From Candidatus Woesearchaeota archaeon (GTDB lineage Archaea > Nanobdellota > Nanobdellia > SCGC-AAA011-G17 > ARS1403), in the NCBI GenBank assembly GCA_016188065.1, contig JACPIN010000021.1, positions 1,954 to 65,953 of the forward strand: DNA of 64,000 nucleotides. The letters are read 5' to 3'. The translations under genes and the position numbers were made by a program. Of the stretch, positions 6,299-25,440 are shown piece by piece (the first letter of the stretch is position 1; every line of letters begins with the position of its first letter). Below the pieces are notes generated by a model. The model was not told the DNA's origin. It saw only the letters and a list, made by a program, of their open reading frames with translations, and did not search any database.

Positions 6299-6436
6299 AT
6301 GACAAGAGTGAACATAGAAGTTGAGGATGAGCTGCACAAGAAGGCTAAATTAGCTGCTGTTCTGGAAAATAAAACTTTGATAGAATTCATTAATGATGCT
6401 ATTAGAGAAAAGGTTGAAAAAGGTAAAAGAAAATGA
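6299..6436 (+). CDS. ribbon-helix-helix (CopG/Arc-like) small protein, 45 aa; not in the ORF track
   Basis: Translates to 'MTRVNIEVEDELHKKAKLAAVLENKTLIEFINDAIREKVEKGKRK'; stop overlaps the next start (AAATGATG). Confidence 0.6.
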   Translation: MTRVNIEVEDELHKKAKLAAVLENKTLIEFINDAIREKVEKGKRK

Positions 6437-7212
6437 TGTTTGATGAAAAAAGAGGGCAGAGCACTATTTTCATTATAGCTGGAATTGTTATTGTTATAGC
6501 TGCTGTTCTTGTTGTGTTCTTTATGCGTGAGAATGTGCAAATTGGCGAGAGGATAACAACTGCTCAAATAGAGCCAATTAAGGAATATGTTGAGGGATGC
6601 GTTAAAGATGAATTGAAGGAAAATTTGGAAAATAGACGAGAATTCGGAGGTAGAGACATTCCTGACTTTGCTGCCCGTAAACTTCAACCAGATTATCCAG
6701 ATTACAATGTTTTAAATGTTCCAAGCAATAATCTACCGTCGTTACTTGCTATTGAAAGAGAAATCTCTATTAAGATCAAATCTAATTTAGAAAATGTTTG
6801 TACCTTAGAAAGATTTAGAGATAATTTTAATGTTGAAAAGAAAGGAGATATAGGTGTCAGAGTTAATATCTCTGACAAACTTATTGAGGTCGATGTTAGC
6901 TACCCCATTGTTATTGAGAAAGCTAATTTCAAAACTGAGGTTAAGGATTTTAATGTGATTTATGAAAATAAATTTGGAAAAATATACGGTGTTGTTAGAG
7001 ATATCTTAAATGGATTTGATGCCGGAACTAATGAGCCTATTTCCAGCTACTGCTTTGGTTCTCCTGATTTAATTTGTAATGTTGTTGAAAATAGTGGAGG
7101 GTTGATGTTTGTTCAAGTTGGTGAGGTGGATAAATTTCCTAAACCAAGCGGAAATCGATTTGTTACAGGAGATGCAAGGGAGGTTTTTACATTTGTGATT
7201 GCTAAACCATGA
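6433..7212 (+). CDS. class III signal peptide (archaeal prepilin-like) protein, 259 aa
   Basis: 'EKRGQSTIFIIAGIVIVIAAVLVVFF': [KR]G-Q followed by a hydrophobic helix. Confidence 0.65.
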   Translation: MMFDEKRGQSTIFIIAGIVIVIAAVLVVFFMRENVQIGERITTAQIEPIKEYVEGCVKDELKENLENRREFGGRDIPDFAARKLQPDYPDYNVLNVPSNNLPSLLAIEREISIKIKSNLENVCTLERFRDNFNVEKKGDIGVRVNISDKLIEVDVSYPIVIEKANFKTEVKDFNVIYENKFGKIYGVVRDILNGFDAGTNEPISSYCFGSPDLICNVVENSGGLMFVQVGEVDKFPKPSGNRFVTGDAREVFTFVIAKP

Positions 7213-9326: not shown

Positions 9327-9327
9327 T

Positions 9328-12300
9328 ATGGATAAAAAAATAAAATTGCGTTTAGTATGGATTTTGTTAATTATAATCTTCTCAAGTAGCATGGTGGTTG
9401 TGCCAAATGCTTTAAGTTATGCAGGTATAGATGATGCAGTTGTTGCGGGAGTTGGTTGTATAACAGGAGCGTTTTTAGCTGGTGGAAGCTGTCGATTGTA
9501 TAACCCTCCTAAAGATAGCTATGATTGCGAAGTGTGCAATAAAAAAATTTTTGGTAAATGTACGGAGTATCAATGCAGAGCTATTGGAAGAGATTGTAGA
9601 TTTGTTCCAAGTTTAAAAGATCCTAAAGAAGGATTCTGTGTTGCCAAAGGAAAACCTGTTTATAGCTCTCCAGACATAATCTCTTGTGGCGTGATTGATA
9701 TTGCGACGATGAAACCTAAAATAGATGTTAGGCAATTTAAGGGTTCAGCAAGTTCTGTAAGTTCTGGTATTTCCACAGTCGGTTCAGGTTCAGATGGTTT
9801 GACACCAGAAACATTTACTGGAGGCGCTGTTACAAACATTGTTTATGGATGCGACCTTGGAGAGTTAGCTTTAAACAAACAATATGTATTGATATTATCT
9901 ACAGATAGAGTTGCTGAATGCAGATTTAGCAGAACGCCTAATAAGAGAGACCTTTTTGAAGTAGATCTCTTTAGAGATGTTTATGAAGATATGCCTGAAG
10001 AAGAAGCATATGGAAAAATTTTGAACAATGCCAGAAACAGTGGCATAAATTTATTTACTGAAGCGCCTAATGGTTTGGATCATTTATGGCCGATTTACTT
10101 TAACAATGGTCAAACTCCTGATCAGCAATGGACTCCTGAAAATATTGATCAATGCAATAATGGTGGCTGCACTTGGTATGCAAGGTGTGCTGATTTTGAT
10201 GGGAATGAAATGAGTCGGGATTATGTATTTAAGTTTTCTTTAGTTGATGGTGTTGGCGATATTGATCCTCCTGTTATTCTTGCTTTTGACCCCATTGATA
10301 AATTTGGAGAGGATAAATATACCCTGCCATTAGGAGCAAAAGGCGAGCTAGGAGTTAAATTTAAAGTTTCTGATTTGACCGGAGTCGAGAGTTGTGGATA
10401 TAGTGATAAAATTGTTGGATTCGAGCAGATGGTTTCTGTTAATTGCAGAATACCTACTGAAAATGAGACTACCTTTAATCTTGGTGAGCAGCCGTTTCTT
10501 AAATTATGCACTGTACCTCTTACAGGAATTAAAGAAGGAAATAATGAATTCTATTTTAGTTGCAGAGACTCTAGTGAAAAGAGAAATGTGAATCCTGTTC
10601 CTTATAAATATACTATTGTTGGAGCGAGTAAATTGTCTTTACAGATTAAAACTCCTATAGATGGAAGTACAATTGATGGGATTAATGATGTTTTGCATGT
10701 TACAACTTTTGGAGGCATTGACGGTACTGCCCTGTGTAAGTATAATTATGCTAAAGTTGGAGGGGGTGTTTCTGGGACTAATTTAGTTTTTGCTTCTGAT
10801 ACTCCTGGGTCTGAAAATAAAAAAGAGCATAAACAGGGAATTAATTTCTTAACTGAAAATGGAGAATATATTTTAACTATTAATTGCGCTGATTTTAATG
10901 ATCCTGAAAATACTGCTAATGGAGATTTGAAGATTAAGTTTGAAAAATCCCAACTTGTGATTACTAAAGAATCTCCTTCTGATCTTATTGCAGAAAGAAA
11001 TCCTATGTTAAAAGTGAAAACTAGCGGGTATGATAATGGAAGGGCTGAATGCAGGTTATATGATAAGCAGAGCATTGCTGTCTTTGATGACAGGAGCGGA
11101 GTTTCTATGACCTCTTCTGGAAATTTATTGCACCAGTTTATTTTTAAGGATTTAACTTTAGGAAAACATAGTTCTTCTGTTGTTTGCAGGTCTCTCGATA
11201 AAAATATACAAAACTCTTTAGAAATTTCTTTTGAAATTCGAGAAAATTTGCCTGTTGCTTGCACTTCACCAACTCAATGCCCTTCTTGTTCGAATGATAA
11301 ATATTGTGCTACTGTTATAGGATCTGGCAAGCATTTATGTGACCCAAATAAAGTTAAACAAAGCTGTGTTAATGGATTTTGCTCTGAGGTAAGTTGTCCT
11401 ACCGGCGATAAGTTTAGTACAGACTATTGCGAGATAAATCCGGATCCTTTATGCTTAAGCGATAAAGATAAAGATAGAATTGCAGATAATTTAGATTGCA
11501 ATGATAGATTAAGTAATATAGGACCGTGCTTAATTGACCAATGCAAGAGATGCAGTGAAGACGAGAGTAAAATAGATAATACTGGGATTTGTGTTGATAT
11601 TCCGAATTGCACTCCAAAAACTCCAACGCGGCCTCCTGGAACCGGAACAGGACAACCCACTGGGCAGTGTAAGTTAACTAAAGCTATGTGGGTTGATAGT
11701 ACTGGAAGAAATCAATTAAGCGGAAATGTTAATGAAAATACAAAAGTAAATGTTGCCTTACAAGGACAAAATTGTCAAGGACAGAGCTTCAATTTAGAAC
11801 TTTATGAATTGGATGATAGAGGATTATTAGGAAAATCTTTTGAAAAAATAAATACTTTAGATTTCCCAAGCCAAATTGTATTTGGCGATCAGGGAGCAGC
11901 ATTTGCTGAATGGGGAGTTAAATGGCTGGAAGACAATGGAGGCATTAATGATGATCCTGAATTTGTATTTAGAGCTGCTAATACTAATATCGAATCTCCT
12001 GTGATAAACGTGAAGAAAGTTCTACTGCCTTCTGGAGCTAAACAAGGCGATTCTTGTAAGACAAATGATAATTGTGATGGTAAACGGGATAGTAGTTTAG
12101 CTTGTGTTAAGATAGATCCTAACTGTCCATCTCAACCAGTACAGAGCGGAGATATAAGGATTTCAATAATAAATCCTGCTCCTGGAAAAGTATTTACTTC
12201 ACTTCCAGTTGAATTCGGCTTAGATATCAAAACTGGAGATCAAACTTTGTCGAAAGAAGAATGCGGATACTGGTTTAAATTTGGGAGATATCAGGCAAGT

Positions 12301-14397
12301 GATCTTCCTCTTGGAAATGTTCCTGATTTCAACACGTTATTTAAATTTCAAAGAATAGGAAGGGATACTACTTATCAAAGTGCAATTGTTAATTTGTATA
12401 CTGTTTTAGGTGTATCTGGACCTGCAAGTGTTAGTAGTGGAGATTATGGATACTATCTTAAATGCAAGAAAGGTGAAAAAGAAGGAGAAACAATTGGGTA
12501 CATAAATTTGAATCTCCTAACTTCTCAGGGAATTTATCATTCAGAATGCAACACTAATCGAGAATGTGTTCAAGTAAGTGGTGCTGGAACTAATAAATGC
12601 GCTATTCCTGAAAACTGCCAAAATGTTCCTACAAGTCCAAGTCATAAAATTTGTGGAGCAAACGGAAGATGCATTAATGTTGTTGGAGCTGGAACAAATA
12701 CTTGCGACGATGATAATCAATGTACAGTTACTCCTCCTCCTGCGTTGCCAAAACTTACTATCAGAAGCATTTCTGCAGAGAATACTGATACTTTAGCTCC
12801 AACACTTAATGTGGAAACAATTGGAGGAAGCAGAATTGAAAAAGATGGAAGAGCTAGCTGTGTATATGGGACAAATGTTGATGAAGTAAGGGCTGGAAGA
12901 GGGAATTCATTTTCTAATGTTCAGCCACTTTTAGACTATACAAAGCATTCTGTAAATCTAGGCGGGTTGAAAGCCGGCGATAAAATTACTTATTTTATTA
13001 AATGCACTGATACTGTAAATTCAAATATATTTGATATTAAACAAAAAGAGATTAACATTAAAATCGTTGCTGTTGATCCAAATTTACCTAAACTAAGTAT
13101 CTCCAATTTTAAAGCAATTAACACTGATACAAGAAATCCGATGATTATTTTAGATACTACTGGCGGGGTTGAAAATGGGAGAGCTACATGCAAATATAGC
13201 AATAAACTTGAAACTGTTCAAGCTGCTGGGGGAAATTCGATGATTAAATCAACGCGTATATCTTCTGTTAATCATGGTGCTTTACTATCTGACTTAATCG
13301 ATGGGAGCCATAGTTATTTTGTAAGATGCGTCGATGATAAAAATGATAGGATTTATTCTGATGCTGAAATTCAGTTTATAGTTAAGATTCCAATTGAGAA
13401 AGCTCAATGCAGTGATGGGATAGATAATGATGCGGATGGATGTCTTGATTTGCAAGATAATGACTGCCAAAATGCTGCGGATAATACAGAATCTGGAAGC
13501 AATTGCCAAGCTGCTCCTCCGATACAATTAGCACCTTCAACCTTGCGTGTTGTCAGCAAAGGACCAAGTGGAATTCAAGCAGATACAAGGGTAAATCTTT
13601 CAGTTACTTTGAGCGGCGGACCTGGCAAATATGGACAAGATGCTGAATGCAGATTTACTAATATAGCTAATAATAATTTATTGGAAGGATATGATGCAAC
13701 CCTCTTCCCAGAGACATTAGACTTTGATCCTACTAATGTTGTTTTGGGATCTACTGTTTATCGCAATGAAATAAATTTGGATAGAATTGGAGATTATACT
13801 TACTATGTTAAATGCAAGGATAATCTTGGAGGGATAACTGTATTACAAACTATTCCATTTAAAGTAGAGATTCCTGCAAGCCAGCAGATTAGCATTGTCA
13901 GAAAATCTCCTGAAGGAGTTTATGGAAGCAAGAATGTTGCGATTGCAATTGAGACCAATGGCGGATTGGATAATGGGGCTAGCGTTAACTGTAATTATCA
14001 AGGGATTATTGGCGGTGGAATCTTAACCAAGCAGCAGATTGCTGGAGGCAGATATGCACATCTTGCAATTGTTCCTAATGTTCCTAATGGAAATTATACT
14101 GCTACAGTAAGTTGTGTTGATAGAGCTAACCAAATTGCATCCACTACTTTAAACATTGATGTGCAAGAGGATTTAATTGTGCCTGTTGAGCAACTGATTA
14201 TAACAAAGGGAAGCAGCAAGTTTATTACTGTTAGCGAGGCTGCTGAGTGCGAAGCTTCTACAGACAATGTTAATTGGCAGAAAGTCGGAAGCGACCAAAA
14301 TAAAAGGAAACATATTGTTACTTTGAGCGGAACTTATTACTTTAGATGCAAGGACTTGTGGAATAATCAGATGCAGACAATTATAATTCATCCATAG
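9328..14397 (+). CDS. giant (1689 aa) secreted protein with about eight Ig-like repeats that each carry a conserved Cys pair, plus Cys-knot-like linkers
   Basis: N-terminal TM/signal; recurring 'G..(A/T)(E/T)C(R/K)Y ... Y(F/Y)(V/I)(K/R)C.D' units; 'CSDGIDNDADGCLDLQDNDC' motif. Confidence 0.75.
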   Translation: MDKKIKLRLVWILLIIIFSSSMVVVPNALSYAGIDDAVVAGVGCITGAFLAGGSCRLYNPPKDSYDCEVCNKKIFGKCTEYQCRAIGRDCRFVPSLKDPKEGFCVAKGKPVYSSPDIISCGVIDIATMKPKIDVRQFKGSASSVSSGISTVGSGSDGLTPETFTGGAVTNIVYGCDLGELALNKQYVLILSTDRVAECRFSRTPNKRDLFEVDLFRDVYEDMPEEEAYGKILNNARNSGINLFTEAPNGLDHLWPIYFNNGQTPDQQWTPENIDQCNNGGCTWYARCADFDGNEMSRDYVFKFSLVDGVGDIDPPVILAFDPIDKFGEDKYTLPLGAKGELGVKFKVSDLTGVESCGYSDKIVGFEQMVSVNCRIPTENETTFNLGEQPFLKLCTVPLTGIKEGNNEFYFSCRDSSEKRNVNPVPYKYTIVGASKLSLQIKTPIDGSTIDGINDVLHVTTFGGIDGTALCKYNYAKVGGGVSGTNLVFASDTPGSENKKEHKQGINFLTENGEYILTINCADFNDPENTANGDLKIKFEKSQLVITKESPSDLIAERNPMLKVKTSGYDNGRAECRLYDKQSIAVFDDRSGVSMTSSGNLLHQFIFKDLTLGKHSSSVVCRSLDKNIQNSLEISFEIRENLPVACTSPTQCPSCSNDKYCATVIGSGKHLCDPNKVKQSCVNGFCSEVSCPTGDKFSTDYCEINPDPLCLSDKDKDRIADNLDCNDRLSNIGPCLIDQCKRCSEDESKIDNTGICVDIPNCTPKTPTRPPGTGTGQPTGQCKLTKAMWVDSTGRNQLSGNVNENTKVNVALQGQNCQGQSFNLELYELDDRGLLGKSFEKINTLDFPSQIVFGDQGAAFAEWGVKWLEDNGGINDDPEFVFRAANTNIESPVINVKKVLLPSGAKQGDSCKTNDNCDGKRDSSLACVKIDPNCPSQPVQSGDIRISIINPAPGKVFTSLPVEFGLDIKTGDQTLSKEECGYWFKFGRYQASDLPLGNVPDFNTLFKFQRIGRDTTYQSAIVNLYTVLGVSGPASVSSGDYGYYLKCKKGEKEGETIGYINLNLLTSQGIYHSECNTNRECVQVSGAGTNKCAIPENCQNVPTSPSHKICGANGRCINVVGAGTNTCDDDNQCTVTPPPALPKLTIRSISAENTDTLAPTLNVETIGGSRIEKDGRASCVYGTNVDEVRAGRGNSFSNVQPLLDYTKHSVNLGGLKAGDKITYFIKCTDTVNSNIFDIKQKEINIKIVAVDPNLPKLSISNFKAINTDTRNPMIILDTTGGVENGRATCKYSNKLETVQAAGGNSMIKSTRISSVNHGALLSDLIDGSHSYFVRCVDDKNDRIYSDAEIQFIVKIPIEKAQCSDGIDNDADGCLDLQDNDCQNAADNTESGSNCQAAPPIQLAPSTLRVVSKGPSGIQADTRVNLSVTLSGGPGKYGQDAECRFTNIANNNLLEGYDATLFPETLDFDPTNVVLGSTVYRNEINLDRIGDYTYYVKCKDNLGGITVLQTIPFKVEIPASQQISIVRKSPEGVYGSKNVAIAIETNGGLDNGASVNCNYQGIIGGGILTKQQIAGGRYAHLAIVPNVPNGNYTATVSCVDRANQIASTTLNIDVQEDLIVPVEQLIITKGSSKFITVSEAAECEASTDNVNWQKVGSDQNKRKHIVTLSGTYYFRCKDLWNNQMQTIIIHP

Positions 14398-14518: not shown

Positions 14519-15841
14519 ATGATTATACAGTTTAAGGATAGGGACAAAGAGCTTAAAGAAATAAAAGAGGTTTTGGATTCTAATAGATTTGAGTTTCTTA
14601 TTCTTTATGGAAGGAGAAGGATCGGGAAAACGGAGTTGGTTTTAAATGCTACCAAACATAGAAGAAGAGTTTATTATCTAGCAACTGGAGAGAAAAATTT
14701 GGAAAGATTTTACAATAGCTGTTTAAAATACGACCATAATATATCAAAATTGAAAAAGGACTGGGAGATTTTATTTGAGCATCTTAAAGACAAAGCAGAG
14801 GTCATTATTATTGATGAATTCCAGAATCTGATAAAAGAAGATAAAAATATATTACATTTATTCCAATCCATTGTAGATACTATCTTTAAAAGCTCTAAAT
14901 TAAAATTAATCTTACTTGGCTCATCAGTTTCAATTATAAGTTCCAAAGTTTTAAGCTATCAAAGCCCGTTGTATGGCAGAAGAACTGGTTCTATTAATCT
15001 CAAACCCGTTTCTTTTTTTGAATTGAATAAATTTTTTCCAGATAAAGACATAAATGAATTAGTTGATATCTATGGGTTTGCTGACGGCATTCCGTTTTAT
15101 CTTGTAAGGATAGAAAAAGAATTTTGGTCGTGGATTAAAGAAGAGATTGTTAAAGAAAGAAGCTTCTTAAGAGACGAAGTTGATTTTTTAATGAAATATG
15201 AATTTGAGGATGCAGGAACTTATAAATTAATCTTAGAGGCTATTTCCAATGGATGCAACAAACTCAATGAAATGAAGAATTTTATTAAGGTTGAGAGGAC
15301 AGATATCAGCCCTTATTTAAGGAACCTCATAGACGTTGGATTTGTAGAGAGAAAAGTTTCAATTACAGAGAATGTAAAATCAAGAAATGGAAGATATTAC
15401 TTATGCGATAATTTTCTTAATTTTTGGTTTCGCTATTTCTATCCAAATCTAAGCTCATTAGAAGAAGGAATTTTTGATGTCAATTTTATTAGAAAGGATT
15501 ATAGCTCTTATTTGGGGCTTGTTTTTGAAAAAATTTCAATGGATTTTTTTATCCGGAAAAATATTTTCAAATTCGATAAAATTGGAAAGTGGTGGCATAA
15601 AGACAAGGAGATTGATATTGTTGCTTTAAATAATAATGAGGGTAAAGTTTTTTATGCTGAATGCAAATGGAAAGAAAGGGTGGATGCTCTTAAAGTTTTA
15701 AACGGGCTGAAGGAAAAAGCTAAATATGTGAAATGGAATAGGAAAAAAGAGGAGCATTATTGCATTATTGCTAAAAGCTTTAAAGAGAAGATAAAGGAAA
15801 AGAATTTATTGTTGTTCGATTTGGAAGACATTAAAAGATGA
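14519..15841 (+). CDS. archaeal ATPase (Arch_ATPase AAA plus DUF234 C-terminal domain)
   Basis: Walker A 'YGRRRIGKTELV', Walker B 'VIIIDEFQ'; stop overlaps the next start. Confidence 0.8.
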   Translation: MIIQFKDRDKELKEIKEVLDSNRFEFLILYGRRRIGKTELVLNATKHRRRVYYLATGEKNLERFYNSCLKYDHNISKLKKDWEILFEHLKDKAEVIIIDEFQNLIKEDKNILHLFQSIVDTIFKSSKLKLILLGSSVSIISSKVLSYQSPLYGRRTGSINLKPVSFFELNKFFPDKDINELVDIYGFADGIPFYLVRIEKEFWSWIKEEIVKERSFLRDEVDFLMKYEFEDAGTYKLILEAISNGCNKLNEMKNFIKVERTDISPYLRNLIDVGFVERKVSITENVKSRNGRYYLCDNFLNFWFRYFYPNLSSLEEGIFDVNFIRKDYSSYLGLVFEKISMDFFIRKNIFKFDKIGKWWHKDKEIDIVALNNNEGKVFYAECKWKERVDALKVLNGLKEKAKYVKWNRKKEEHYCIIAKSFKEKIKEKNLLLFDLEDIKR

Positions 15842-16338
15842 AAAGAGGACAGACTCAGGAAATTTTTGTATGGCTTTTTGTTTTAATTGTTGCGGCTGCT
15901 ATTTTATTTTTTGGAATTAAACTGATAAAGAAGAGCGAAGGATTGAAAGACGAAGTCTTGATTGTTAAATTGTTTAATGATATAGATAAGAAATTAAGTC
16001 AGTATTACTTTTTGGATAAAGGAAGTAGTGGAGAAGAGAGATTTTTGCTGCCAAGAAATATTGAATGGGTCTGCTTCGCTAAAAAGGGGGCTATTAATTT
16101 TAATTATTTGTCTCGACCACATGTTGGTGGTGAAGATGGCAAACTGATGAGAGATATTTTAGGTATATTAGACGAAGGGACTTATGTTTTTGTCGGTCCT
16201 TTAAACTTATATGAGAATAACAGATTTAAATTAAATATTAAGATTAAAACTGAGGTTTTATGCAAAGAAGTTGTTAATGGTGTTTTGAGTTTGGATTTAG
16301 AAAACAAAGGTGTTAGCGATGGTATCGAGGTTAAATAA
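15838..16338 (+). CDS. class III signal peptide (prepilin-like) protein
   Basis: 'MKRGQTQEIFVWLFVLIVAAAILFFGI'. Confidence 0.7.
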   Translation: MKRGQTQEIFVWLFVLIVAAAILFFGIKLIKKSEGLKDEVLIVKLFNDIDKKLSQYYFLDKGSSGEERFLLPRNIEWVCFAKKGAINFNYLSRPHVGGEDGKLMRDILGILDEGTYVFVGPLNLYENNRFKLNIKIKTEVLCKEVVNGVLSLDLENKGVSDGIEVK

Positions 16339-17296
16339 AAAAGGTATTGCAATTACTTTTGACTGGATGTTTTCAATAGTTGCCGGAGTTTTGATATTTT
16401 CCTTTCTTATTTATTTTGCTGTGCAGAACACTGATTTATTTGGAAAAGTAACTGCTAGAATTGTTTCTGAAGAACTTGATATCTTATTTTCTGGATATGA
16501 AACTGCTCAAGTTAGTACTGTGCTAGATTTTGGCAGAGAAGCTACATTGGATTTTAGATGCGATGAGATAAATAAAAGACAAAAATTTATGATTAATGAT
16601 AGAGAAGGAAAAAATTTGTGGGGCAAGATAATTTTTGCTCCTAAGAATGTTAAAAGTGACAAAATAAATGTGGCTACTGCTAGTTGGAATGCCCCTTTCA
16701 GGGTTGCTAACTTTGTTTATTTGTGGGATAAAAGATATCTGTTAGATTATGATTCTGATTTAGAGCTTCCTGAATGGGTTAATCCTTCTGCTTCTGGAGA
16801 TATTAATATTAAATTTGCACGTGATTCCAGTTTGGCTTTGAGTTCGTCTTCAAGTTTTGATTGTTCATACAATTTCAGGACTTCGAATAATGAAGAATAT
16901 GATAAGGTGATTTATTATGATAAAAATCCCTCAGATGATGATGTTAGAGGGTATGTTTGCTTCAAGGGCAAAGAAAAATCTTTTTTCTATGGCGAGGCAA
17001 TGATGATTGGTGCTATTTTTTCTGAAAGCAAAATAGAGTTTGACTGTGTTAAGGATATTGCTGTTGATAGATTAAAGATTGTGAATGATATTTATACAAA
17101 GAAGGTAAGTAATTTGATTATTTCTGATAGAAGCTGTAATCCTAATTTTGGTGCTTCTTATAATAATGCAGTTCATGAGATTGATAATAATGGCATGCTA
17201 GAAAAAGATTTTGATTCATTTGACTTTGGTTATGTTAATAGGATTAGAAGTGCAAATCAAAATTTAATATCTACGGGGTGTGCAGGTGTCTATTAA
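16319..17296 (+). CDS. class III signal peptide-like protein (ATG at 16319 preferred over the GTG at 16310)
   Basis: 'MVSRLNKKGIAITFDWMFSIVAGVLIFSFLIYFAV'. Confidence 0.6.
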   Translation: MVSRLNKKGIAITFDWMFSIVAGVLIFSFLIYFAVQNTDLFGKVTARIVSEELDILFSGYETAQVSTVLDFGREATLDFRCDEINKRQKFMINDREGKNLWGKIIFAPKNVKSDKINVATASWNAPFRVANFVYLWDKRYLLDYDSDLELPEWVNPSASGDINIKFARDSSLALSSSSSFDCSYNFRTSNNEEYDKVIYYDKNPSDDDVRGYVCFKGKEKSFFYGEAMMIGAIFSESKIEFDCVKDIAVDRLKIVNDIYTKKVSNLIISDRSCNPNFGASYNNAVHEIDNNGMLEKDFDSFDFGYVNRIRSANQNLISTGCAGVY

Positions 17297-17780
17297 TCAT
17301 AGAGGACAATTAGAAATAGGAATTACTACAATGGTTTTGATAGTATTTATTGTCTTACTGTTATTGAGCTTAATTCTTTATTTTAAGTTTACTTATTTAG
17401 AACTAGAAGAAGATAGAACGACTTTGTTAGACCAAAAATATAACAGCATTTTAAGCGTGATTATTGGCTTGCCAGAATTTAGATGCAGCAGAGGTGGGAT
17501 TGAAAGTGAATGCTTGGATGCTGCTAAACTCTCTGCATTTTCTGGAGTTTATGCAAGCAACAAGGAACATTATGGTAATATATTTGGCACTGTCAATGGA
17601 ATTTGGGTCGATGTTCCTGTTAATGATGTGAATAATTTGAATTATCCTGATCAAGGAAGATTTTCAGTATATGGAAAAGCTGATTTAAAAGGAGGGATTT
17701 ATTCTGTTCCTGTTTCATTATATTATCCTGAATCAAAAAAATATAAAATAGGAATTTTGAAGATTAGGGGGGAGTTATGA
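17280..17780 (+). CDS. class III signal peptide (prepilin-like) protein (GTG start)
   Basis: 'NHRGQLEIGITTMVLIVFIVLLLLSLILYF'. Confidence 0.6.
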   Translation: MQVSINHRGQLEIGITTMVLIVFIVLLLLSLILYFKFTYLELEEDRTTLLDQKYNSILSVIIGLPEFRCSRGGIESECLDAAKLSAFSGVYASNKEHYGNIFGTVNGIWVDVPVNDVNNLNYPDQGRFSVYGKADLKGGIYSVPVSLYYPESKKYKIGILKIRGEL

Positions 17781-18202
17781 AACGAGGTCAGGCTGAGATT
17801 ATCGGACTTGTGATAGTTGTTTTGTTGCTTGTGTTTGCATTGATATTTTTTGTTAAAATAAAGGGTTTTGAAGATGATAATGAGAGCAGACTGATAAGAA
17901 GCAATTTGAGAGCGAATAGCGCCTTGAATGCGTTGATGAAAGTGCATATTGAAAACGATAAAAAACAGATGAAGGACTTGGTTGATGACTGTATAACTGC
18001 TTCTAAAGATTGCGATAGTGTTGAGAGAAAGTTAAGAGAAGCTTTGCTTTATGCTTTTGAAGACAATATTAATTATAATCTTACGGTGTATAGGGGAGAT
18101 GTAGCAGATATAAGTCTTGGTAGAACTTGTAAGAGCAGCATAAACGCTAGTCCGTTTATTATAAGATCTAATGGTAAAGTTGAACTTAAAATTTGTACTT
18201 AG
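17777..18202 (+). CDS. class III signal peptide (prepilin-like) protein
   Basis: 'MKRGQAEIIGLVIVVLLLVFALIFFV'; ATGA overlap with the upstream gene. Confidence 0.7.
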   Translation: MKRGQAEIIGLVIVVLLLVFALIFFVKIKGFEDDNESRLIRSNLRANSALNALMKVHIENDKKQMKDLVDDCITASKDCDSVERKLREALLYAFEDNINYNLTVYRGDVADISLGRTCKSSINASPFIIRSNGKVELKICT

Positions 18203-18265
18203 TTAGTAAGTTAGTTAGTAATTTACTAAGAAAACTTTATATATCTTGAAATAATTGATGAATTG

Positions 18266-18388
18266 ATGAAAAAGTACCTTCTTCTTATTGAGGATGAGAA
18301 ACTTTGGGAAAAATTCAAAGAATCTATTAAAAACGATATCAATAGCGAAATTATTGAGATGATTAAAAAGAAGGTGAAAGAAAGATGA
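18266..18388 (+). CDS. small RHH-like protein, 40 aa; not in the ORF track
   Basis: Translates to 'MKKYLLLIEDEKLWEKFKESIKNDINSEIIEMIKKKVKER'; stop overlaps the next start (AGATGATT), as at 6299-6436. Confidence 0.5.
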   Translation: MKKYLLLIEDEKLWEKFKESIKNDINSEIIEMIKKKVKER

Positions 18389-20340
18389 TTTTTTGGGGTA
18401 AACGGGGGCAGATGACGCTGTTTATTATAGCTGGCATAGTTATCCTATTCGCTGCCTTCTTTATTGGCTACTTGCAGAATGAAAATTTTAGGCAGAGAGT
18501 TGAGAGCCAACTCTTTGGAGTTAGCGTTGTTCCTGAGCAGGCGAAAGGAGTTGTGAGCTACATAAATAATTGCATAGAGAACATTGCTAGCGACGGGGTT
18601 GAACTCTTAGGATTTCAGGGAGGGTATCTTGATGTTCCAAATTCTTTGAGTTCGAGAGAGTATTTACAGCCAGATCCTTTAAGCAAAGTTCCTTACTGGG
18701 TTTATGGAAATAAAGTTGTTGTTCCCTCTCCAGGGCAGATGGAATCCCAGTTAAAGAGCTATATAGATAGAAGGGCGAATGTTGAATGTGATTTCAATGC
18801 TTTTAGCGATTATGAATTTAGTTCTGAACAGATATCTACGAATGTTAAAATATCTGACGGAGGGATTTTAGTTAATTTAGATTCTGATATCGATGTTAAT
18901 ATAAAAGACAGTGTTTATTCTTTAGATGATTATATTAGTGCAAGCATTCCTGTTGATTTAAGTTTGTTATATGATCTTGCTGTTGATATTGTTAATAGGG
19001 AAATGAGAGAAGGCAAAATAGGAAGAGCTCCTTTTGAGTTGGCAACAAAGGAGTTGATAGCAAGCCATTCTAAAGATGAAAATAGTAGACTTAGCATTCC
19101 CCCTATTGGTAAATTAGATTTTAGCTGTAATCCTAAAACTTGGCTGATGGAAAATGTGAAAGAGAATATAAAAGAAATTTTGAGTGATAATATGAGATTT
19201 TTGCGTGTTGAAGGTGCTGGTAATCTTGACTATGGGGAGGATTATGTTAACCTATTTGTAGATGATGTTTTTTCGTCAGAACATTTAGATGTTGGGATAG
19301 ATTTTAACTACAATAAAGAATGGCCTTTATTTTTAGACATTTATCCAAGAAATGGAAGGGTGCTGAAACCAGATACTTTGAAAATTGGACTACCGTTTAT
19401 TTCTTTATTCTGTACTACAACATATAACTTTAGATACACTTTAAGATATCCGTTAATGGTTAATTTGGAAAATGACGGGTTTATATTTAGGTTTCCTATT
19501 GAGGTATTTATTTTAGATAATTATGCTGGGAGAGATATTGAAGGGGATGTTTCTCGTGTCAGTTTTGCTGACATAGAAAGTGAATTTTGTAATAAAGGGC
19601 AGAGATTGAGTGAAGACATAAACATTGTTACAATTGATGCAACTAATAGACAACCGCTGTCTGATGTTCAAGTTATGTATGTTTGCGGTGTAAACAACTG
19701 CGTTATTGGAGATACTAAATTGGAAAGTGGAGAGGTTAGACTTAATAGTAAATTTCCTTTGTGTTACAATGGTGAGATAAGATTAAGCAAGGAAGGTTAT
19801 GGAGAGTTTACTCAGGAATTAACAACTCTAAATTCTAAAAGCACGAGAATATTTGGCGTTATGAAACCTTTTATAGAAAAAGAAATTGAGCTTAGAGTTA
19901 TTGATCTTAGCGATGGGATTACTAGTGTAAGAGAGTTAAATGAAAATGAGATAGCTAGTGTGCAGTTTAATATTTTGGAGAATGGCATGATTAAAAATCA
20001 GATTGGTGTTGTATTCGAAGGGGATGGTATCGAGAAAATTGAGTTGTTGCCTGAGCAAGAATATAATATTTTGATAAATTTAGTTTTGAATGATAAAGTT
20101 GTTATTCCTAAAGGTAAATATGGAGAACAAGAAATTCCCTCTCAGGAATTGGAAAATATTTTGCTAGGTGGAGCAGATTTCAATGCTTACACCTCAGAGG
20201 AGGATTTGATGAAGGACAAGATAATTATTTTTGCCTTGTCTAATGGTATTCCGAAAAATTATCAGGACTATATTGAGGGCTTTGATATGAAAGCATTAAG
20301 CGAATTAAATCAAGATAAACTGGAGTTGAGGTTTGAATGA
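18385..20340 (+). CDS. large (651 aa) class III signal peptide protein, paralogous at its N-terminus to 6433..7212
   Basis: 'GKRGQMTLFIIAGIVILFAAFFIGY' versus 'EKRGQSTIFIIAGIVIVIAAVLVVF'. Confidence 0.7.
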   Translation: MIFWGKRGQMTLFIIAGIVILFAAFFIGYLQNENFRQRVESQLFGVSVVPEQAKGVVSYINNCIENIASDGVELLGFQGGYLDVPNSLSSREYLQPDPLSKVPYWVYGNKVVVPSPGQMESQLKSYIDRRANVECDFNAFSDYEFSSEQISTNVKISDGGILVNLDSDIDVNIKDSVYSLDDYISASIPVDLSLLYDLAVDIVNREMREGKIGRAPFELATKELIASHSKDENSRLSIPPIGKLDFSCNPKTWLMENVKENIKEILSDNMRFLRVEGAGNLDYGEDYVNLFVDDVFSSEHLDVGIDFNYNKEWPLFLDIYPRNGRVLKPDTLKIGLPFISLFCTTTYNFRYTLRYPLMVNLENDGFIFRFPIEVFILDNYAGRDIEGDVSRVSFADIESEFCNKGQRLSEDINIVTIDATNRQPLSDVQVMYVCGVNNCVIGDTKLESGEVRLNSKFPLCYNGEIRLSKEGYGEFTQELTTLNSKSTRIFGVMKPFIEKEIELRVIDLSDGITSVRELNENEIASVQFNILENGMIKNQIGVVFEGDGIEKIELLPEQEYNILINLVLNDKVVIPKGKYGEQEIPSQELENILLGGADFNAYTSEEDLMKDKIIIFALSNGIPKNYQDYIEGFDMKALSELNQDKLELRFE

Positions 20341-23300
20341 GATTAAAAATAATTGCTTTGCTTATTGTACTTTTAATAGCAGGAGTTAACTTTCATGCAT
20401 CTATTGCTTTAGCCCAGATTCAAGGAAGCACTGGAAGTCCTCAATTTGGTAATGCTTATGACAGCGATAGTGACGGGATATGTGATGCGCCTAGAGGAAG
20501 TGCAAAGCATCAGGGACAAAGTGGATTTAGTTCACTTGGATGCAATGATAATGCATATGGTGATTTGTGCCCTGGTACCTTTTTGAATGATAGGCCTGTT
20601 GGAAGTAGCTCTACTAATAGCGGATGTGGTCCGAGCCAGACTGCTAGATTGATAAATTTTTGGAGTGTTTCGAGAGGCGAATTAACGCCTAAAACATTAA
20701 AAGTAAATTGGATTACCGATACTAGAAATGGTGTTTTGGTTTATCAAATAATTAACCTTATTAGAAATCCTGTATTTTCTAATCGCAAGATTGAGTTGAG
20801 AGATGTTAGTGTAAGCTGTGATTCTGGGACTGGGATAGATAAAACTAGTGGGCAGTATAGGGAAATTCCTGGGGGGTTTATTTCTGATGCTAGAATTGTT
20901 CCTGCGGATGATACGCAAAATGAGGGGAGAGCGATTCAGTTTAGTGTGAGACAGAGATCTGATCAAGATGTGAGAACTAAGAGTGCAATTGCCCTTGCTT
21001 CAGAAAGGATAAAAGGCATAGATGAAATTAAAACAACTTGTAGAATAACAATAAACCAATGTGAGAAAGATGGTAAAACAGGAGACTGTTTTCCAATGTA
21101 TCCTGCTGAACAAGATGAAATAGATTTTTTTATTCCTATTGATACTTTGGCTGTTCAGCCTCCAGAGTTTGCATTGGCTGCTGGCATTGATTTTGCTGAA
21201 AAGACAATTAAGATTACAGATGATTTGATTCATAAGTTTACTAAGATTTATCAATTTACATTAAAGTGGTGCAGTTATTCTATTGCTGCTGTATTGGCTA
21301 CTAAGTTTCTGAAATTTATTACCGGTGGTTTTGGTGATTTAGCCGAGTTGATTTGGTATGGCCCTGAAGGATTGAGGAGATTTGGTTTTGAAGAGAAGAG
21401 CTTTGTTATAAGTGGGAGAAGTATGTGTGCTGCTGCTCTCTGTCCTAAGAACTGGTGTAAGTTTGCCAATATTGAAACTGGTCAGAAGCAAGTTCAGGAA
21501 TATGTTGATTTGGATAAGGATGGAAAACCAGAGACACCTGTATGGGAGCAAGATGAGAAAGGGAATATTAAATATTATCCTGGAAAAGATGGAGGAATAA
21601 CAACTACTCCAATTCCCAAACTAACAAGTCAAAAAATTACATTAGGAAGCAAAACTGTAAATATTCAGGATAGTTTAATCTTGAGTGCTGGATGTGGCTG
21701 TATTAGTGGAATTTTAACTAATTTATATGAGATTAGAGCTATTGCCGATTCTTGGAGAACTTGTTTGCTTGAGGCTAAGACTGGAGGGGCTTATACTGCC
21801 AGATGTGATCAGTTATTGAATCATGGAATTTGCAAATTTGTTTTACAGGAGCTTGATTCTTTCCATGGAACTGATTTATTAAAGAGAGCGTTTAGCGTTG
21901 ACAAAGGGGGGGTTCTAGGTGATGGAGAAACTAGAGGTGCGACTGAAGATGCCAGAATAGCCCAAGGACTAAAAGAAAAAGTTAAAGACTCTGTAGATGA
22001 TGCTAAGAGGTTTGCTAAGGATGATTTGGTTGAATTAGGAATGGCAGCTGGCGGTGGTGTTTTGGGTTATAATGAATTGCAATTAGAGAGTACAATTTGT
22101 TCACTTGCAATATATCAAAGACTTCCACAGATAGATGCATTTACAAGATTTGATTTTAACAGACCTGTATTAAAAACAAGCATTTCATTAAACTGGGATT
22201 CTAAACCTTTATTCCAAACGCCTACAGGAGAAAGGATGTTTGAGTATAGTCTTGACTGGATGATTTTAGCTGGAAGGGATAATTTGAGATATGAAGTTTA
22301 TTTGGAATCTTTTGATGGAAAGAGAAGCCCGAGATTGGATAGACAAAGCGGTTATTTGAATAGAGCAGGTGATTATCATAGTGACTTTGTTCAGATTTTA
22401 GACACTACTGATTATACAAGGGCATGTGTTAGCATTCCTAATGAATTTCCTGAACCGAGATGTTTCCCAATTGGGAAGGGAGGAGACGATACTATTTTTG
22501 GCGAGTTTAAAGTATATGGTGTTGAGTTAGATACAGATAAGGATGGGATGCCGGATGAATGGGAATTAGAAATGGGATTTAAACCCGATGATGCAAGAGA
22601 TGCTGCTCAAGATGAAGACATGGATGGTTTGAGTAATTTGAGAGAATATTCTTTAGGAACAAATCCTAAATCTGCTGATGATCCTGGTAACAAGCCGCTT
22701 AGTGTCGAATTTGCTCGAAGTGATTGCAGGGCAGTGTTCAATAAAGACATTGAATTCCTTGGCAAGACTGAAATTATTCCTCGATATCAACTAGGAGATA
22801 TGATTGAAGTAAATCCGGTTAGTTTAGTAACTATAACAAGGCCTAGCGACGGGGTGCAGATAAAAGTAGAGATTACTGGTGAGGGTGTTAATTTCAATAA
22901 AATTGTTAGAATTAATGCTCATGATGTTGCCAATAATGCCCGGTTTGTTGTGTGGGGTATTCCCAAAATAGGAGCAGAGGTTCCTTATGGTGGTATGTAT
23001 AATATTAAATTTAGTCTAGTTAAAAGTGCTGCTCTGAGCGATCCGTTATGTGGAGATGAAAGAGGATTAACTATTAATTCAATAAGGGAAAAAAAGATTG
23101 TTATTTATGATCCGGCTTTTAGCGGTTGTTCTGATTTTGGCGGGCATGATATCTCAAGACAGCAAGCTTGTATTTCTGGAAACGGAAACGTTCAAATTAA
23201 AATTGATGAATGCGTAGCTGATGGAAAACTTGTTGAGTATTCTTGCAAGGAAAATCAATGCGTTTCACAACTTGTTGGATGCCCTACTGGAAGTGTTTGC

Positions 23301-23981
23301 CAGAATGGAAGGTGTACTTTAGCAAAAGAAGTTAAGATCCCTATTATCCCTATTCCAACTGAGCCTGCTAAAGTTATTCCTGTACCTACACTTATTCCTC
23401 CCGGACCTTATGCTACAGAGCCTACGACTGGTACTATCTTTGAACAAACCAAAACCAATCTGGGCTATCCCGGAGGAGAGACATTTAATTATGTTAGGAA
23501 TACTGTGAAAGAGATTTTTGGTGATTCAGCAGCTACAGCATTACCTTTAATATTAGGAATGATTACCCAGGAATCAAAGGGAAACAGAGAAACCAAGCCG
23601 TCTTCAAAAGGAGCAATCGGTTTAATGCAGATTATGCCTGACGCTCAGAGTGATGTTAACTCTTACTTAAGAGGAAAAGGGATACAAGCAACTAAGGAAC
23701 GGGGGATATGGCAGGACAATGTTTATATCGGAGTTTTGTATTTCAAATTTCAAATTGATAAATATAAAGATTTTAAGTCTCAAACTGACAACTATAATGA
23801 GGTTAAATTAGCATTGGCTGCTTATAATGCCGGACCTGGATTTGTCGACAGAGCATGTACTACTCTTAAAAATTTTGAAGAGTGCAAATCTTTCTTGCCG
23901 AAGGAAACTCAAAATTATGTACCTTCTGTTATGAAGCATGCAGAGGCATGGAGAGGAGAGCTTAAAATACCTGGTGTTTGA
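20337..23981 (+). CDS. 1214-aa secreted protein with TSP3-like Ca-binding repeats and a C-terminal lytic transglycosylase (SLT/GH23) domain
   Basis: Signal peptide; 'DTDKDGMPDEWE...DEDMDGLSNLREYSLGTNP'; 'GMITQESKGN', 'GAIGLMQIMP', 'LAAYNAGPGFV'. Confidence 0.8.
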   Translation: MRLKIIALLIVLLIAGVNFHASIALAQIQGSTGSPQFGNAYDSDSDGICDAPRGSAKHQGQSGFSSLGCNDNAYGDLCPGTFLNDRPVGSSSTNSGCGPSQTARLINFWSVSRGELTPKTLKVNWITDTRNGVLVYQIINLIRNPVFSNRKIELRDVSVSCDSGTGIDKTSGQYREIPGGFISDARIVPADDTQNEGRAIQFSVRQRSDQDVRTKSAIALASERIKGIDEIKTTCRITINQCEKDGKTGDCFPMYPAEQDEIDFFIPIDTLAVQPPEFALAAGIDFAEKTIKITDDLIHKFTKIYQFTLKWCSYSIAAVLATKFLKFITGGFGDLAELIWYGPEGLRRFGFEEKSFVISGRSMCAAALCPKNWCKFANIETGQKQVQEYVDLDKDGKPETPVWEQDEKGNIKYYPGKDGGITTTPIPKLTSQKITLGSKTVNIQDSLILSAGCGCISGILTNLYEIRAIADSWRTCLLEAKTGGAYTARCDQLLNHGICKFVLQELDSFHGTDLLKRAFSVDKGGVLGDGETRGATEDARIAQGLKEKVKDSVDDAKRFAKDDLVELGMAAGGGVLGYNELQLESTICSLAIYQRLPQIDAFTRFDFNRPVLKTSISLNWDSKPLFQTPTGERMFEYSLDWMILAGRDNLRYEVYLESFDGKRSPRLDRQSGYLNRAGDYHSDFVQILDTTDYTRACVSIPNEFPEPRCFPIGKGGDDTIFGEFKVYGVELDTDKDGMPDEWELEMGFKPDDARDAAQDEDMDGLSNLREYSLGTNPKSADDPGNKPLSVEFARSDCRAVFNKDIEFLGKTEIIPRYQLGDMIEVNPVSLVTITRPSDGVQIKVEITGEGVNFNKIVRINAHDVANNARFVVWGIPKIGAEVPYGGMYNIKFSLVKSAALSDPLCGDERGLTINSIREKKIVIYDPAFSGCSDFGGHDISRQQACISGNGNVQIKIDECVADGKLVEYSCKENQCVSQLVGCPTGSVCQNGRCTLAKEVKIPIIPIPTEPAKVIPVPTLIPPGPYATEPTTGTIFEQTKTNLGYPGGETFNYVRNTVKEIFGDSAATALPLILGMITQESKGNRETKPSSKGAIGLMQIMPDAQSDVNSYLRGKGIQATKERGIWQDNVYIGVLYFKFQIDKYKDFKSQTDNYNEVKLALAAYNAGPGFVDRACTTLKNFEECKSFLPKETQNYVPSVMKHAEAWRGELKIPGV

Positions 23982-24784
23982 TTATGAATTTGAATTTTTT
24001 AAAATTATTTCTGGAAAGCCTGAAAATATTAAAGAACAAGAAAATATTTGCCTTATTCGGAATTGAGTTTCTTTTCTTTTTGTTATTGATGATTCTTGCT
24101 TTAGTAACGGTGACTTCTGTTGCTGAAGACGTTAATCAACTAAGAAATTTCCAGCAGGAATTTACTGTCGATGAGAATGCGAGCGCGAATTATCTGTATG
24201 AAAATCTTCTTTCTCTTTCCAATATATTAAATGACCTTATCAAAATAGTTATTGCTGCATTTATAATCCTCTTCTTTATCTCGGGTTTATTTAATGGGAT
24301 TTTATGGAAAGCGAGCGTTAATTTGATACATGGAAAACCACTGTTTAAAGATTATAATAAAAGATATTTCCTTAATTTTTTCTTGTTAACTTTCATTTGG
24401 TTTGTTGCTTTTGCTGGTGTGTTTTACTTACTTTATCAATATGGATTCAGCTATGGCGTTTTTGCAATAATTTTAATTTTGTTTTTCTATTCTGCTTGGA
24501 TTAATTTTAGCTGTTATGCGCTTGATAAAAACTTCAGTTCAATTATGAGGGGATTTGTTTTTGCAATAAAGAAACTTTATATTTTTGTACCTGCCTTTGT
24601 GCTGCTTGCAGTTATTTTATTTTTAGGCTCTTATGCTTTTGGAGTGTTTAATAATTTTTTTGTTTCTTTTTTGGCAAGTATATTTTTAGTATTTATTTTT
24701 GCATGGTTCAGAATTTTCTTGATAACGATTTGCGGGGAACAGGATTCGAAACCTGCCAAGAAATCTGCTGATAATAAATATTAA
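23978..24784 (+). CDS. multi-pass membrane protein, last gene of the cluster
   Basis: about six hydrophobic helices; start overlaps the upstream stop. Confidence 0.6.
   Translation: MIMNLNFLKLFLESLKILKNKKIFALFGIEFLFFLLLMILALVTVTSVAEDVNQLRNFQQEFTVDENASANYLYENLLSLSNILNDLIKIVIAAFIILFFISGLFNGILWKASVNLIHGKPLFKDYNKRYFLNFFLLTFIWFVAFAGVFYLLYQYGFSYGVFAIILILFFYSAWINFSCYALDKNFSSIMRGFVFAIKKLYIFVPAFVLLAVILFLGSYAFGVFNNFFVSFLASIFLVFIFAWFRIFLITICGEQDSKPAKKSADNKY
24732..24757. repeat. degenerate copy of the 3' end (acceptor plus T-arm) of the nearby tRNA-Leu gene; candidate att-type direct repeat
   Basis: 'gcggggaacaggattcgaaacctg' versus 'gcgggagacaggattcgaacctg' at 25441; same orientation. Confidence 0.5.
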
Positions 24785-25203
24785 ATGATTCTTGTAATGC
24801 TTACGCTCTTACTATCATTAAATAAGATTTTAAAATGCTCAAATACTCCTCTTGTTCCAACAACAACCTCTTGTTCTTCAGGATCCTGCATTACAGCAAT
24901 TGGAACATCATGTAGAACTTCATCTAGTCTCTGTACTTTACCTTTAAAGATAATTGTCACTTTACTATTTTTTATTTTTCCTATTCCTTTATAACCAATC
25001 ATCTCACTTTCTTCATTTTCAATTTCTAAGTCTAAAAAATCAGCAATCGCCTTAGGTACTGTGGTGATATCGCTTCCTGAATCAAGAATCACAGAGAATT
25101 CCATAGACTTATTTCCTTTCTTTAGTACAATATCAATTAGCGGTCTTTTAATATAGGTACCATTTTCTAATTTAAATTTTCTGAATCTATAAACTAAAGA
25201 CAT
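24781..25203 (-). CDS. retropepsin-like (clan AA) aspartyl protease
   Basis: 'VILDSGSDITTVP' active-site D-S/T-G; 140 aa. Confidence 0.65.
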   Translation of the reverse strand: MSLVYRFRKFKLENGTYIKRPLIDIVLKKGNKSMEFSVILDSGSDITTVPKAIADFLDLEIENEESEMIGYKGIGKIKNSKVTIIFKGKVQRLDEVLHDVPIAVMQDPEEQEVVVGTRGVFEHFKILFNDSKSVSITRII

Positions 25204-25405: not shown

Positions 25406-25440
25406 TTTAATAATGAATGATTTCAGTCTTTTTAAATATT

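Follow-up and report, generated by a model that had tools for sequence, protein, structure and literature searches.

In the 64,000-nucleotide stretch of contig JACPIN010000021.1 analysed here (hereafter the window; assembly GCA_016188065.1, Candidatus Woesearchaeota archaeon), an open reading frame (ORF) on the forward strand (20337..23981, +) codes for a protein of 1214 residues. This protein, which we call the SLT protein, is composed of a signal peptide, a large orphan core, a Pro-rich linker and a C-terminal domain of the lytic transglycosylase type (SLT/GH23). Its gene is the last but one in a cluster of genes of the same orientation (6433-24784, +), which also codes for several pilin-like proteins and a multi-pass membrane protein. 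An original prediction made from the letters of the DNA had singled out the SLT protein as an exported archaeal protein combining a lytic transglycosylase domain with TSP3-type Ca-binding repeats, and had proposed that it acts on a bacterial partner or prey.

Domain composition of the SLT protein

The N-terminus of the SLT protein, MRLKIIALLIVLLIAGVNFHASIALA/Q, follows the pattern of Sec-type signal peptides, as judged by eye and by hydropathy, in agreement with the claim that the protein is exported. The n-h-c layout is recognizable, and the cleavage site after ALA, placed by eye, delimits a predicted signal peptide of 27 residues (aa 1-27, 20337..20417, +). It is the sole hydrophobic segment of the protein.

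The C-terminal domain, hereafter type A (aa 1031-1209, 23427..23963, +), matches the Pfam SLT signature (PF01464) between aa 1069 and 1180 (23541-23876, +), with an E-value of 9.2e-14 and a score of 51.5 bits for a cutoff of 21.3. The motifs ITQES (23562-23576), GAIGLMQIMP (23610-23639) and AAYNAGPG (23817-23840), as well as the GAA codon of the putative catalytic Glu1079 of the ES motif (23571..23573, +), are located exactly where they had been predicted. A phmmer search against the PDB aligned the domain to the catalytic domains of Pseudomonas aeruginosa Slt (5ohu) and Neisseria LtgA (5mpq), with the four motifs of family-1 lytic transglycosylases (ES, GLMQ, AYNAGPG and ET-x-x-YV-x-x-V) in register. 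GAIGLMQIMP, AAYNAGPG and ETQNYVPSV match those two sequences column by column, and E1079-S1080 pairs with the QES/RQES of Slt/LtgA, which places Glu1079 on their catalytic Glu. The identity of the domain to solved structures is approximately 20-24%. The original prediction had made its claim depend on the conservation of the catalytic Glu and of the motif spacing; E1079, S1080, G1095 and Q1098 are invariant across 14 SLT-bearing relatives.

We modelled the C-terminal part of the protein (aa 780-1214) with AlphaFold2. The model has a mean predicted local distance difference test (pLDDT) value of 78. It starts with a beta-sandwich followed by a Cys-rich beta knob, then comes the Pro-rich linker, which is disordered, and lastly a helical domain resembling lysozyme, with pLDDT values between ~80 and 94 across most of this last domain. 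In Foldseek searches, the SLT-domain model matched MltC (4c5f), LtgA (5o1j), MltE (3t36), Slt70 (1qte) and phiKZ gp144 with a probability of 1.00, and target template-modelling (TM) scores reached up to 0.69 among these matches (0.68 for MltE). Ralstonia GH23 chitinase and goose-type lysozymes were found at lower ranks. An NCBIfam search also returned a weak similarity of the SLT protein to the flagellar-assembly lytic transglycosylase BB0259 (E=3e-5, far under the cutoff). By sequence and predicted fold, the C-terminal domain is a family-1 lytic transglycosylase.

The linker preceding this domain (about aa 996-1030, 23322..23426, +) has pLDDT values <50 (residues 219-251 of the model). It follows the conserved core (aa 28-995, 20418..23321, +), which we delimited using the extent of similarity in relatives, invariant residues and AlphaFold2 models. 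The core comprises DxDxDG loops (at aa 42 and 391), two Ig-like sandwiches, a Cys-rich module with long helices, two TSP3 repeats, a third sandwich and the Cys-rich beta knob. An alignment of the relatives, whose cores are between 28 and 68% identical, revealed many invariant Cys, Asp and Trp positions in this region. The family of core proteins is rare: 16 full-length relatives of the SLT protein were found in a set of 5.8 billion proteins, and a search with the core alone in 1.84 billion representative proteins yielded just 16 matches with E-values <1e-30.

The AlphaFold2 model of aa 28-790 is of moderate confidence (pLDDT 68, predicted TM score 0.46). Foldseek searches of the PDB and BFVD with the core gave no informative structural match, returning generic Ig-like sandwiches and complement C3 at low TM score, and we therefore dropped any fold assignment for the N-terminal core. 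The helical module and the second sandwich are distantly common to giant proteins of Nanoarchaeota, 1200-2750 residues long. An SLT domain was found in 6 of 25 such giants, and an OmpA domain in one of the 25. The giants that share these modules are probably the proteins of 'up to 3,000 aa' described by Castelle et al. 2021 (PMC8204110).

The two TSP3-type repeats (aa 732-743 and 759-777, 22530..22667, +) have the sequences DTDKDGMPDEWE (22530-22565) and DEDMDGLSNLREYSLGTNP (22611-22667). The Pfam TSP3_bac profile (PF18884) recognizes two stretches in the SLT protein with an E-value of 2.2e-5 and a score of 24.6 bits, just below the 25-bit cutoff, and it scores 27.7 bits, over the cutoff, in the orthologue P0009. 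In each repeat, the Asp, Gly, Trp and Glu residues do not vary among 16 sequences. When the whole window was translated in six frames, the motif D.D.DG..[DN]..E was found at just two places, both of them in the SLT protein, and none of 20000 shuffled versions of that protein yielded two or more such motifs. The repeats are putative Ca-binding elements, as initially proposed. We made no use of NCBIfam matches to the pilus-like protein Amuc_1099 and to MtsD, which are confined to the TSP3 repeats and far under the cutoffs.

Exchange of the C-terminal tail among relatives

To survey the tails, we compared the core by BLAST with 22 relatives, for a total of 23 proteins counting that of the window. 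In all 22 relatives, the similarity stops between aa 982 and 995 of the query, right after the Cys-rich knob. What follows differs from one group of proteins to another. The type A SLT domain is found in the window protein, P0002, P0003, P0004 and P0006, and a type B SLT domain is present in nine proteins (P0005, P0007-P0010, P0012, P0013, P0015 and P0138). P0016 harbours a third SLT type, type C. Other enzyme classes are present at the same position in two relatives: P0011 ends with a predicted N-acetylmuramoyl-L-alanine amidase (Amidase_3, E=2.8e-29) and P0140 with a predicted Peptidase_M23 endopeptidase (E=4.6e-20), in which the HxxxD and HxH motifs are visible. Non-enzymatic tails consist of a dockerin-like part followed by an uncharacterized region in P0014 and of extra Cys-rich repeats in P0143. 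Finally, P0137, P0139, P0141 and P0144 have no tail.

The core of P0005 is 66% identical to that of the window protein, yet its type B SLT domain could not be aligned to type A by BLAST, indicating that the cassette has been exchanged among close relatives. Outside the type A group, the sequences retrieved that come closest to the type A domain belong to small bacterial SLT proteins (43% identity) and not to type B. On this sequence evidence, the C-terminal domain is an exchangeable cassette carried by a conserved scaffold, with a fixed junction at ~aa 995, where the Pro-rich linker starts in the window protein. With three SLT types in the family, the domain seems to have been acquired or exchanged more than once.

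The various tails would attack different bonds, namely the glycan strand (SLT), the MurNAc-L-Ala amide (Amidase_3) and the peptide (M23). Peptidoglycan is the only substrate common to these three enzyme classes. The presence of three non-homologous predicted murein hydrolase classes on one scaffold argues strongly that peptidoglycan is the target. The earlier proposal of an enzyme aimed at bacterial murein thus gains support from the amidase and M23 variants, which it had not included.

The gene cluster and its archaeal context

The SLT gene belongs to a Woesearchaeota-type DPANN archaeon (Nanoarchaeota in GTDB) and is chromosomal. Archaeal information-processing genes are found on both sides of it, including those for a TFS-type zinc ribbon protein (2495-2812), PCNA (3599-4342), TFB (28614-29543) and a tRNA-splicing endonuclease (31416-31991), and the same contig codes for diphthamide synthase; together, these genes confirm the archaeal origin of the DNA. 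A 98-nt tRNA (25440-25537, -) was detected by Rfam (47 bits) and not reported by ARAGORN, which suggests an intron-containing archaeal tRNA. The flanking gene order (TFB, metallo-beta-lactamase, tRNA endonuclease, methyltransferase) is shared with a Rifle-aquifer Woesearchaeota contig and others, indicating that the gene is vertically inherited in the chromosome of a DPANN archaeon. These archaeal markers and the conserved synteny led us to reject contamination or mis-binning of the window contig.

The full-length relatives all come from metagenome-assembled genomes (MAGs) labelled Woesearchaeota or Nanoarchaeota. A 5.4-kb contig (L008, CAYWKL010000054.1) that carries a core homologue (67% identical by tblastn) and the 651-aa protein described below was deposited in a MAG under the name 'uncultured Gammaproteobacteria bacterium'. 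Mis-binning of a DPANN contig is the most likely cause; that this name hints at a physical association with a bacterium is less likely.

The GC content of the SLT-coding part is the same as that of the core (0.377). The closest non-DPANN SLT protein retrieved (P0018, 43% identity) is coded in an ordinary bacterial gene neighbourhood. Phage SLT domains are at most 36% identical to that of the window protein, the best of them being mostly annotated as tail or virion proteins, and we found no core relatives in IMG/VR. A viral or prophage origin was rejected on the basis of the phage identities and the IMG/VR search. The original prediction had called for a search for the bacterial or phage donor; with the nearest non-DPANN SLT at 43% identity and a GC content equal to that of the core, none could be named.

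We call 'pilin-like' the proteins whose N-terminus contains [KRN]-G-[QIF] followed by ~20 hydrophobic residues, the archaeal class III signal pattern. Six proteins of the window have this pattern, which is kept in five orthologous groups across six loci. The cluster begins with genes for a 259-aa pilin-like protein, a 705-aa secreted, Cys-rich protein and a 1689-aa secreted, adhesin-like giant (together 6433..14397, +), followed by a DUF234 ATPase gene, four small pilin-like genes (166, 328, 166 and 141 aa; 15838..18202, +), a 41-aa ORF (18263..18388, +) and the gene for a 651-aa protein with a class III, type-IV-pilin-like signal peptide (18385..20340, +; GKRGQ and a hydrophobic stretch). The SLT gene comes next, and the last gene codes for a membrane protein of 266 or 268 residues with 6-7 predicted membrane spans (23978..24784, +; the likelier start is the ATG at 23984). 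The start codon of the SLT gene overlaps the stop codon of the 651-aa protein gene (ATGA, 20337-20340), and the gene for the membrane protein starts within a few bases of the SLT stop codon.

The same gene order is found in the loci L001, L002 (amidase variant), L009/L010 (no tail), L013 and L014. Within it, both the motif and the order of the four small pilin-like genes are kept in L001, L002, L009, L013 and L014. Orthologues of the 651-aa protein are coded directly upstream of the core gene in 11 loci (L001-L006, L008-L010, L013-L014), and in L015 a 654-aa protein with the same class III start occupies that position. The membrane-protein gene is immediately downstream irrespective of the tail type, including in the amidase variant L002 and the giant variant L015; its 268-aa product matches no Pfam family. 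The triad formed by a ~650-aa pilin-like protein, a core protein and the membrane protein also recurs with a 2686-aa giant relative on a 909,730-bp DPANN contig (ERZ26692762 ctg84340).

The 41-aa ORF (MMKKYLLLIEDEKLWEKFKESIKNDINSEIIEMIKKKVKER) is the most conserved gene of the cluster, with 74-90% identity across loci, though the neighbouring core proteins are only 28-68% identical. Its counterparts are located at positions 7927-8049 of L013, 6485-6607 of L014, 7888-8010 of L001, 7934-8050 of L002 and 7808-7921 of L009. It matches no Pfam family, and the sequence-pattern reading of a ribbon-helix-helix regulator, which lacks Pfam support, was dropped. In L015, this slot holds a 65-aa ORF with weak winged-helix matches.

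Regarding the first part of the cluster, the 705-aa protein (7209-9326, +) has a long low-complexity stretch rich in Gly, Ser, Thr and Val, and many Cys residues. The 1689-aa giant (9328-14397, +) has no Pfam domain, its only match being a short 'acidic double-disulfide repeat' of NCBIfam (E=8e-6). The last ~300 residues of this protein are conserved in the giants of L001, L002, L009 and L010, and its counterpart in L001 harbours PKD and TSP3_bac domains.

The ATPase_2 and DUF234 gene (14519-15841, +) is absent from that position in L002, L009, L013 and L014, and two different AAA-type genes are inserted at other cluster positions in L001. We rejected it as the ATPase of the system on these grounds; it looks like a variable or mobile insertion that is not part of the system.

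Several other ORFs were recorded in these regions. In L002, a LAGLIDADG gene follows the cluster (14620-15255), and in the window, a 140-aa ORF with sub-threshold retropepsin-like matches (gag-asp_proteas, Asp_protease_2) is found right after it (24781-25203, -). Farther along the window are a large orphan ORF of 1018 residues (32749-35805, +) with no significant Pfam match and very weak dockerin/EF-hand-like matches near its N-terminus, a free-standing 291-aa ORF (52057-52932, +) with LAGLIDADG_3 and an N-terminal HTH, consistent with a homing-endonuclease-like gene, and a 454-aa ORF (61374-62738, -) in which Pfam recognizes regions 2 and 4 of bacterial Sigma-70 below threshold (23-26 bits, close to the cutoffs).

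Possible function and comparison with known systems

The idea that such archaeal proteins are directed against bacterial murein has already been published. Large extracellular GH23 lytic transglycosylase proteins were reported in Woesearchaeota and Pacearchaeota, with a proposed role in the binding and degradation of bacterial walls (Castelle et al. 2021, PMC8204110), following the earlier sightings of Rinke 2013 and Castelle 2015, as cited in that article. Vigneron et al. 2022 (PMC9723730) described a 'large lytic murein transglycosylase' (GH23) in Woesearchaeota MAGs and proposed predation on bacteria, and Zhang et al. 2024 (PMC10936187) made the same observation again. A 2025 PLoS Biology paper (PMC12352652) reports that peptidoglycan hydrolase homologues are prominent in Nanoarchaeota and that bacteria-killing archaeal peptidoglycan hydrolases were shown experimentally in other archaeal lineages. 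We found no mention in the open-access literature, a weak form of evidence, of the cassette exchange at a fixed junction, of amidase or M23 variants on the scaffold or of the pilin-like operon, and the word 'pili' does not occur in PMC8204110 or PMC9723730.

The best-supported reading of our data is that an exported scaffold presents a murein-cleaving domain outside an organism that itself has no murein. More specifically, we propose, with a probability of roughly two in three, that the scaffold and its SLT tip are held by a pilus-like carrier and act on the wall of an attached bacterium. The scaffold would be the lineage-specific core of ~970 residues, disulfide-rich and with Ca-binding motifs, joined by the ~35-residue Pro-rich linker to a C-terminal transglycosylase of the Slt70 type. 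The domain containing Glu1079 would cut the beta-1,4 MurNAc-GlcNAc bond of bacterial peptidoglycan. With genes that overlap or abut, the SLT protein would be produced together with the 651-aa pilin-like protein and the multi-pass membrane protein, and the cluster products would form a pilus-like or pseudopilus-like surface structure. Through this structure, the enzyme would be kept in contact with the wall of the bacterium to which the archaeon attaches and would breach the sacculus locally, to allow contact or feeding. We infer the enzymatic activity, the bacterial target, the association with the pilin-like proteins and the contact dependence; the pilus-held position at a site of bacterial contact is suggested by the conservation of the operon and its translational coupling.

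A number of observations weigh against this proposal. The hydropathy scan revealed no recognizable membrane or cell-surface anchor in the SLT protein, which might simply be released. No Pfam or NCBIfam pilin model matches the small pilin-like proteins, and Pfam searches identified no type IV pilus ATPase, platform protein or prepilin peptidase among the scanned ORFs of the window. The link to pili thus depends on N-terminal motifs and gene order, and the missing assembly genes, together with the missing anchor, weaken the notion of a pilus-held scaffold; pilus assembly genes may be encoded elsewhere in the genome. The four relatives without enzyme tails indicate that the core has a function independent of murein cleavage. 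The original prediction had also invoked an SH3b module as a sign of cell contact. The only trace that we found is a sub-threshold SH3b/SH3_3 match (PF08239) in the 705-aa protein (aa 636-687, 21.8 bits for a cutoff of 27), and a PDB sequence search revealed no SH3b domain in that protein, so this putative wall-binding module was not used as evidence. Lastly, we know of no Woesearchaeota for which a bacterial host has been shown.

The main rival explanation is that of a freely released enzyme, without stable contact or carrier, that kills competitors or digests necromass for amino sugars and amino acids. The Sec signal peptide without anchor and the lack of pilus assembly genes among the scanned ORFs of the window are what one would expect of such an enzyme, and there are published precedents: peptidoglycan of dead bacteria has been proposed as a nutrient of Pacearchaeota (PMC11537232), a predatory or 'vampiristic' lifestyle has been proposed (PMC9723730), and antagonistic archaeal peptidoglycan hydrolases are reported to exist (PMC12352652). 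However, a free enzyme would have no use for a conserved core of ~970 residues with Ca-binding and Ig-like modules, nor would it require the strict, translationally coupled linkage to the pilin-like and membrane proteins that is present in every locus examined. A member without an enzyme tail (L009, whose core protein is P0137) retains the whole operon, and no uptake or catabolic genes for anhydromuropeptides, the products of lytic transglycosylases, are visible in the window. We consider this explanation rather unlikely.

The remaining explanations are all unlikely, to a greater degree. Woesearchaeota have been suggested as partners of methanogens, and the substrate of the GH23 domain might be a different glycan from murein, for example chitin or chito-oligosaccharides (on which the Ralstonia GH23 chitinase acts), methanogen pseudomurein or an archaeal surface glycan; the lower-ranked fold matches to a chitinase and goose-type lysozymes would fit. 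This is quite improbable, as all four transglycosylase motifs are Slt70-like, MltC, LtgA, MltE and Slt70 rank first among the structural matches, and the sister tails are predicted to be a MurNAc-L-Ala amidase or an M23 peptidase, for which chitin offers no substrate. In pseudomurein, N-acetyltalosaminuronic acid is joined by beta-1,3 linkages, and this polymer is resistant to lysozyme-type enzymes. Slightly less probable still is a housekeeping role in the envelope of the archaeon itself, in the manner of VirB1, FlgJ or BB0259 clearing the path for a surface machine. The linkage to pilin-like genes and the weak NCBIfam similarity to BB0259 agree with it, but no murein synthesis gene is visible in the window and, to our knowledge, archaea do not make murein. 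In addition, some orthologous operons lack any hydrolase tail, and a swappable tail with three bond specificities resembles weapons or effectors rather than assembly enzymes. An artefact is effectively refuted, whether it be a chimeric or mis-binned contig bearing a gene from a bacterium or phage, or a transfer too recent to be functional in the archaeon. SLT domains are overwhelmingly bacterial and the homologous contig L008 is filed under Gammaproteobacteria, but the archaeal genes flank the SLT gene on both sides, orthologues with conserved flanking synteny are found in several independent assemblies, the sequence distances and GC content given above and the search of IMG/VR do not point to a recent donor, and the catalytic residues are invariant among relatives with cores as divergent as 28-68% identity.

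Beyond the pilus-held enzyme that we favour, a broader hypothesis would be a contact machine specific to DPANN, with a pilus-like filament or pseudopilus of five or six pilin-like proteins, a ~1000-residue tip or scaffold, and a recombining warhead that cuts glycan, amide or peptide bonds for breaching bacterial walls. We put it forward as a tentative possibility, more doubtful than the former proposal. If true, it would be for archaea what tail lysins are for phages and polymorphic effectors for bacteria, acting across the domain boundary on bacterial hosts or prey, and the variety of warheads would mirror adaptation to differing bacterial wall chemistries. Woesearchaeota and Pacearchaeota are among the most abundant uncultured archaea. 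To the question of whether they live on bacteria rather than on other archaea, the SLT domain has been offered as a clue since 2015, and by itself the window protein is one more member. The presence of three predicted hydrolase classes on one scaffold and of an operon with pilin-like and membrane proteins sharpens the argument and makes it testable, and the cluster could be used as a marker for candidate bacterium-associated DPANN archaea in enrichment cultures. If confirmed, the combination of scaffold, exchangeable warhead and pilin-like operon would constitute a defined archaeal apparatus for breaching bacterial walls.

The closest known proteins are the large extracellular lytic transglycosylases of DPANN archaea (fam00969, PMC8204110), which the window protein resembles in lineage, in its large exported form, in its C-terminal SLT/GH23 domain and in its proposed role. 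P0006, whose core is 52% identical to that of the window protein, is coded by a Woesearchaeota genome of the Rifle aquifer, and NCBI already lists it under the name 'lytic transglycosylase domain-containing protein'. The compact core of ~1000 residues, the fixed junction, the tail exchange, the three SLT types and the pilin-like operon are features seen here and unmentioned in the papers searched. With the family-1 lytic transglycosylases Slt70, MltC, MltE and LtgA, the domain shares the four motifs, the Glu of the ES motif and the alpha-helical, lysozyme-like fold. It differs from them in that it is at most 43% identical to any non-DPANN protein retrieved and belongs to a host without murein, and in that the superhelical ring of Slt70 or a lipoprotein anchor is replaced by an unrelated archaeal scaffold of ~970 residues.

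Phage virion-associated hydrolases of the phiKZ gp144/gp181 class similarly combine a large structural protein with a small terminal murein hydrolase for a local breach from the outside in, the enzyme class likewise varies between relatives, and phiKZ gp144 is among the structural matches of the SLT domain. In contrast with them, the window core shows no kinship with phage proteins in sequence or structure, and its gene is chromosomal, amid cellular housekeeping genes. Polymorphic toxins (Rhs, CDI, T6SS and T7SS effectors) also have a conserved N-terminal region, a fixed junction and a variable C-terminal enzyme. Unlike in those systems, no immunity gene co-varies with the tail, the same downstream membrane protein accompanying the SLT, amidase and giant variants; as the archaeon has no murein, it would not need one. 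Pfam searches also identified no Rhs, PAAR or CdiA motifs in the SLT protein. Finally, the cluster resembles the minor-pilin sets of type IV pili with their large, tip-associated Ca-binding protein (PilVWX-FimU and PilY1) and the archaeal bindosome (BasABC), with four small and one larger pilin-like genes next to a gene for an exported, non-pilin protein of >1000 residues with Ca loops. A weak BasB-like N-terminal match was also returned by NCBIfam. It has no sequence homology with PilY1 or known pilins, and no assembly ATPase, platform protein or peptidase is coded nearby. The likeness to minor-pilin/PilY1 sets and to the bindosome is presumably one of organization, with a set of pilin-like proteins and a large exported partner coded side by side.

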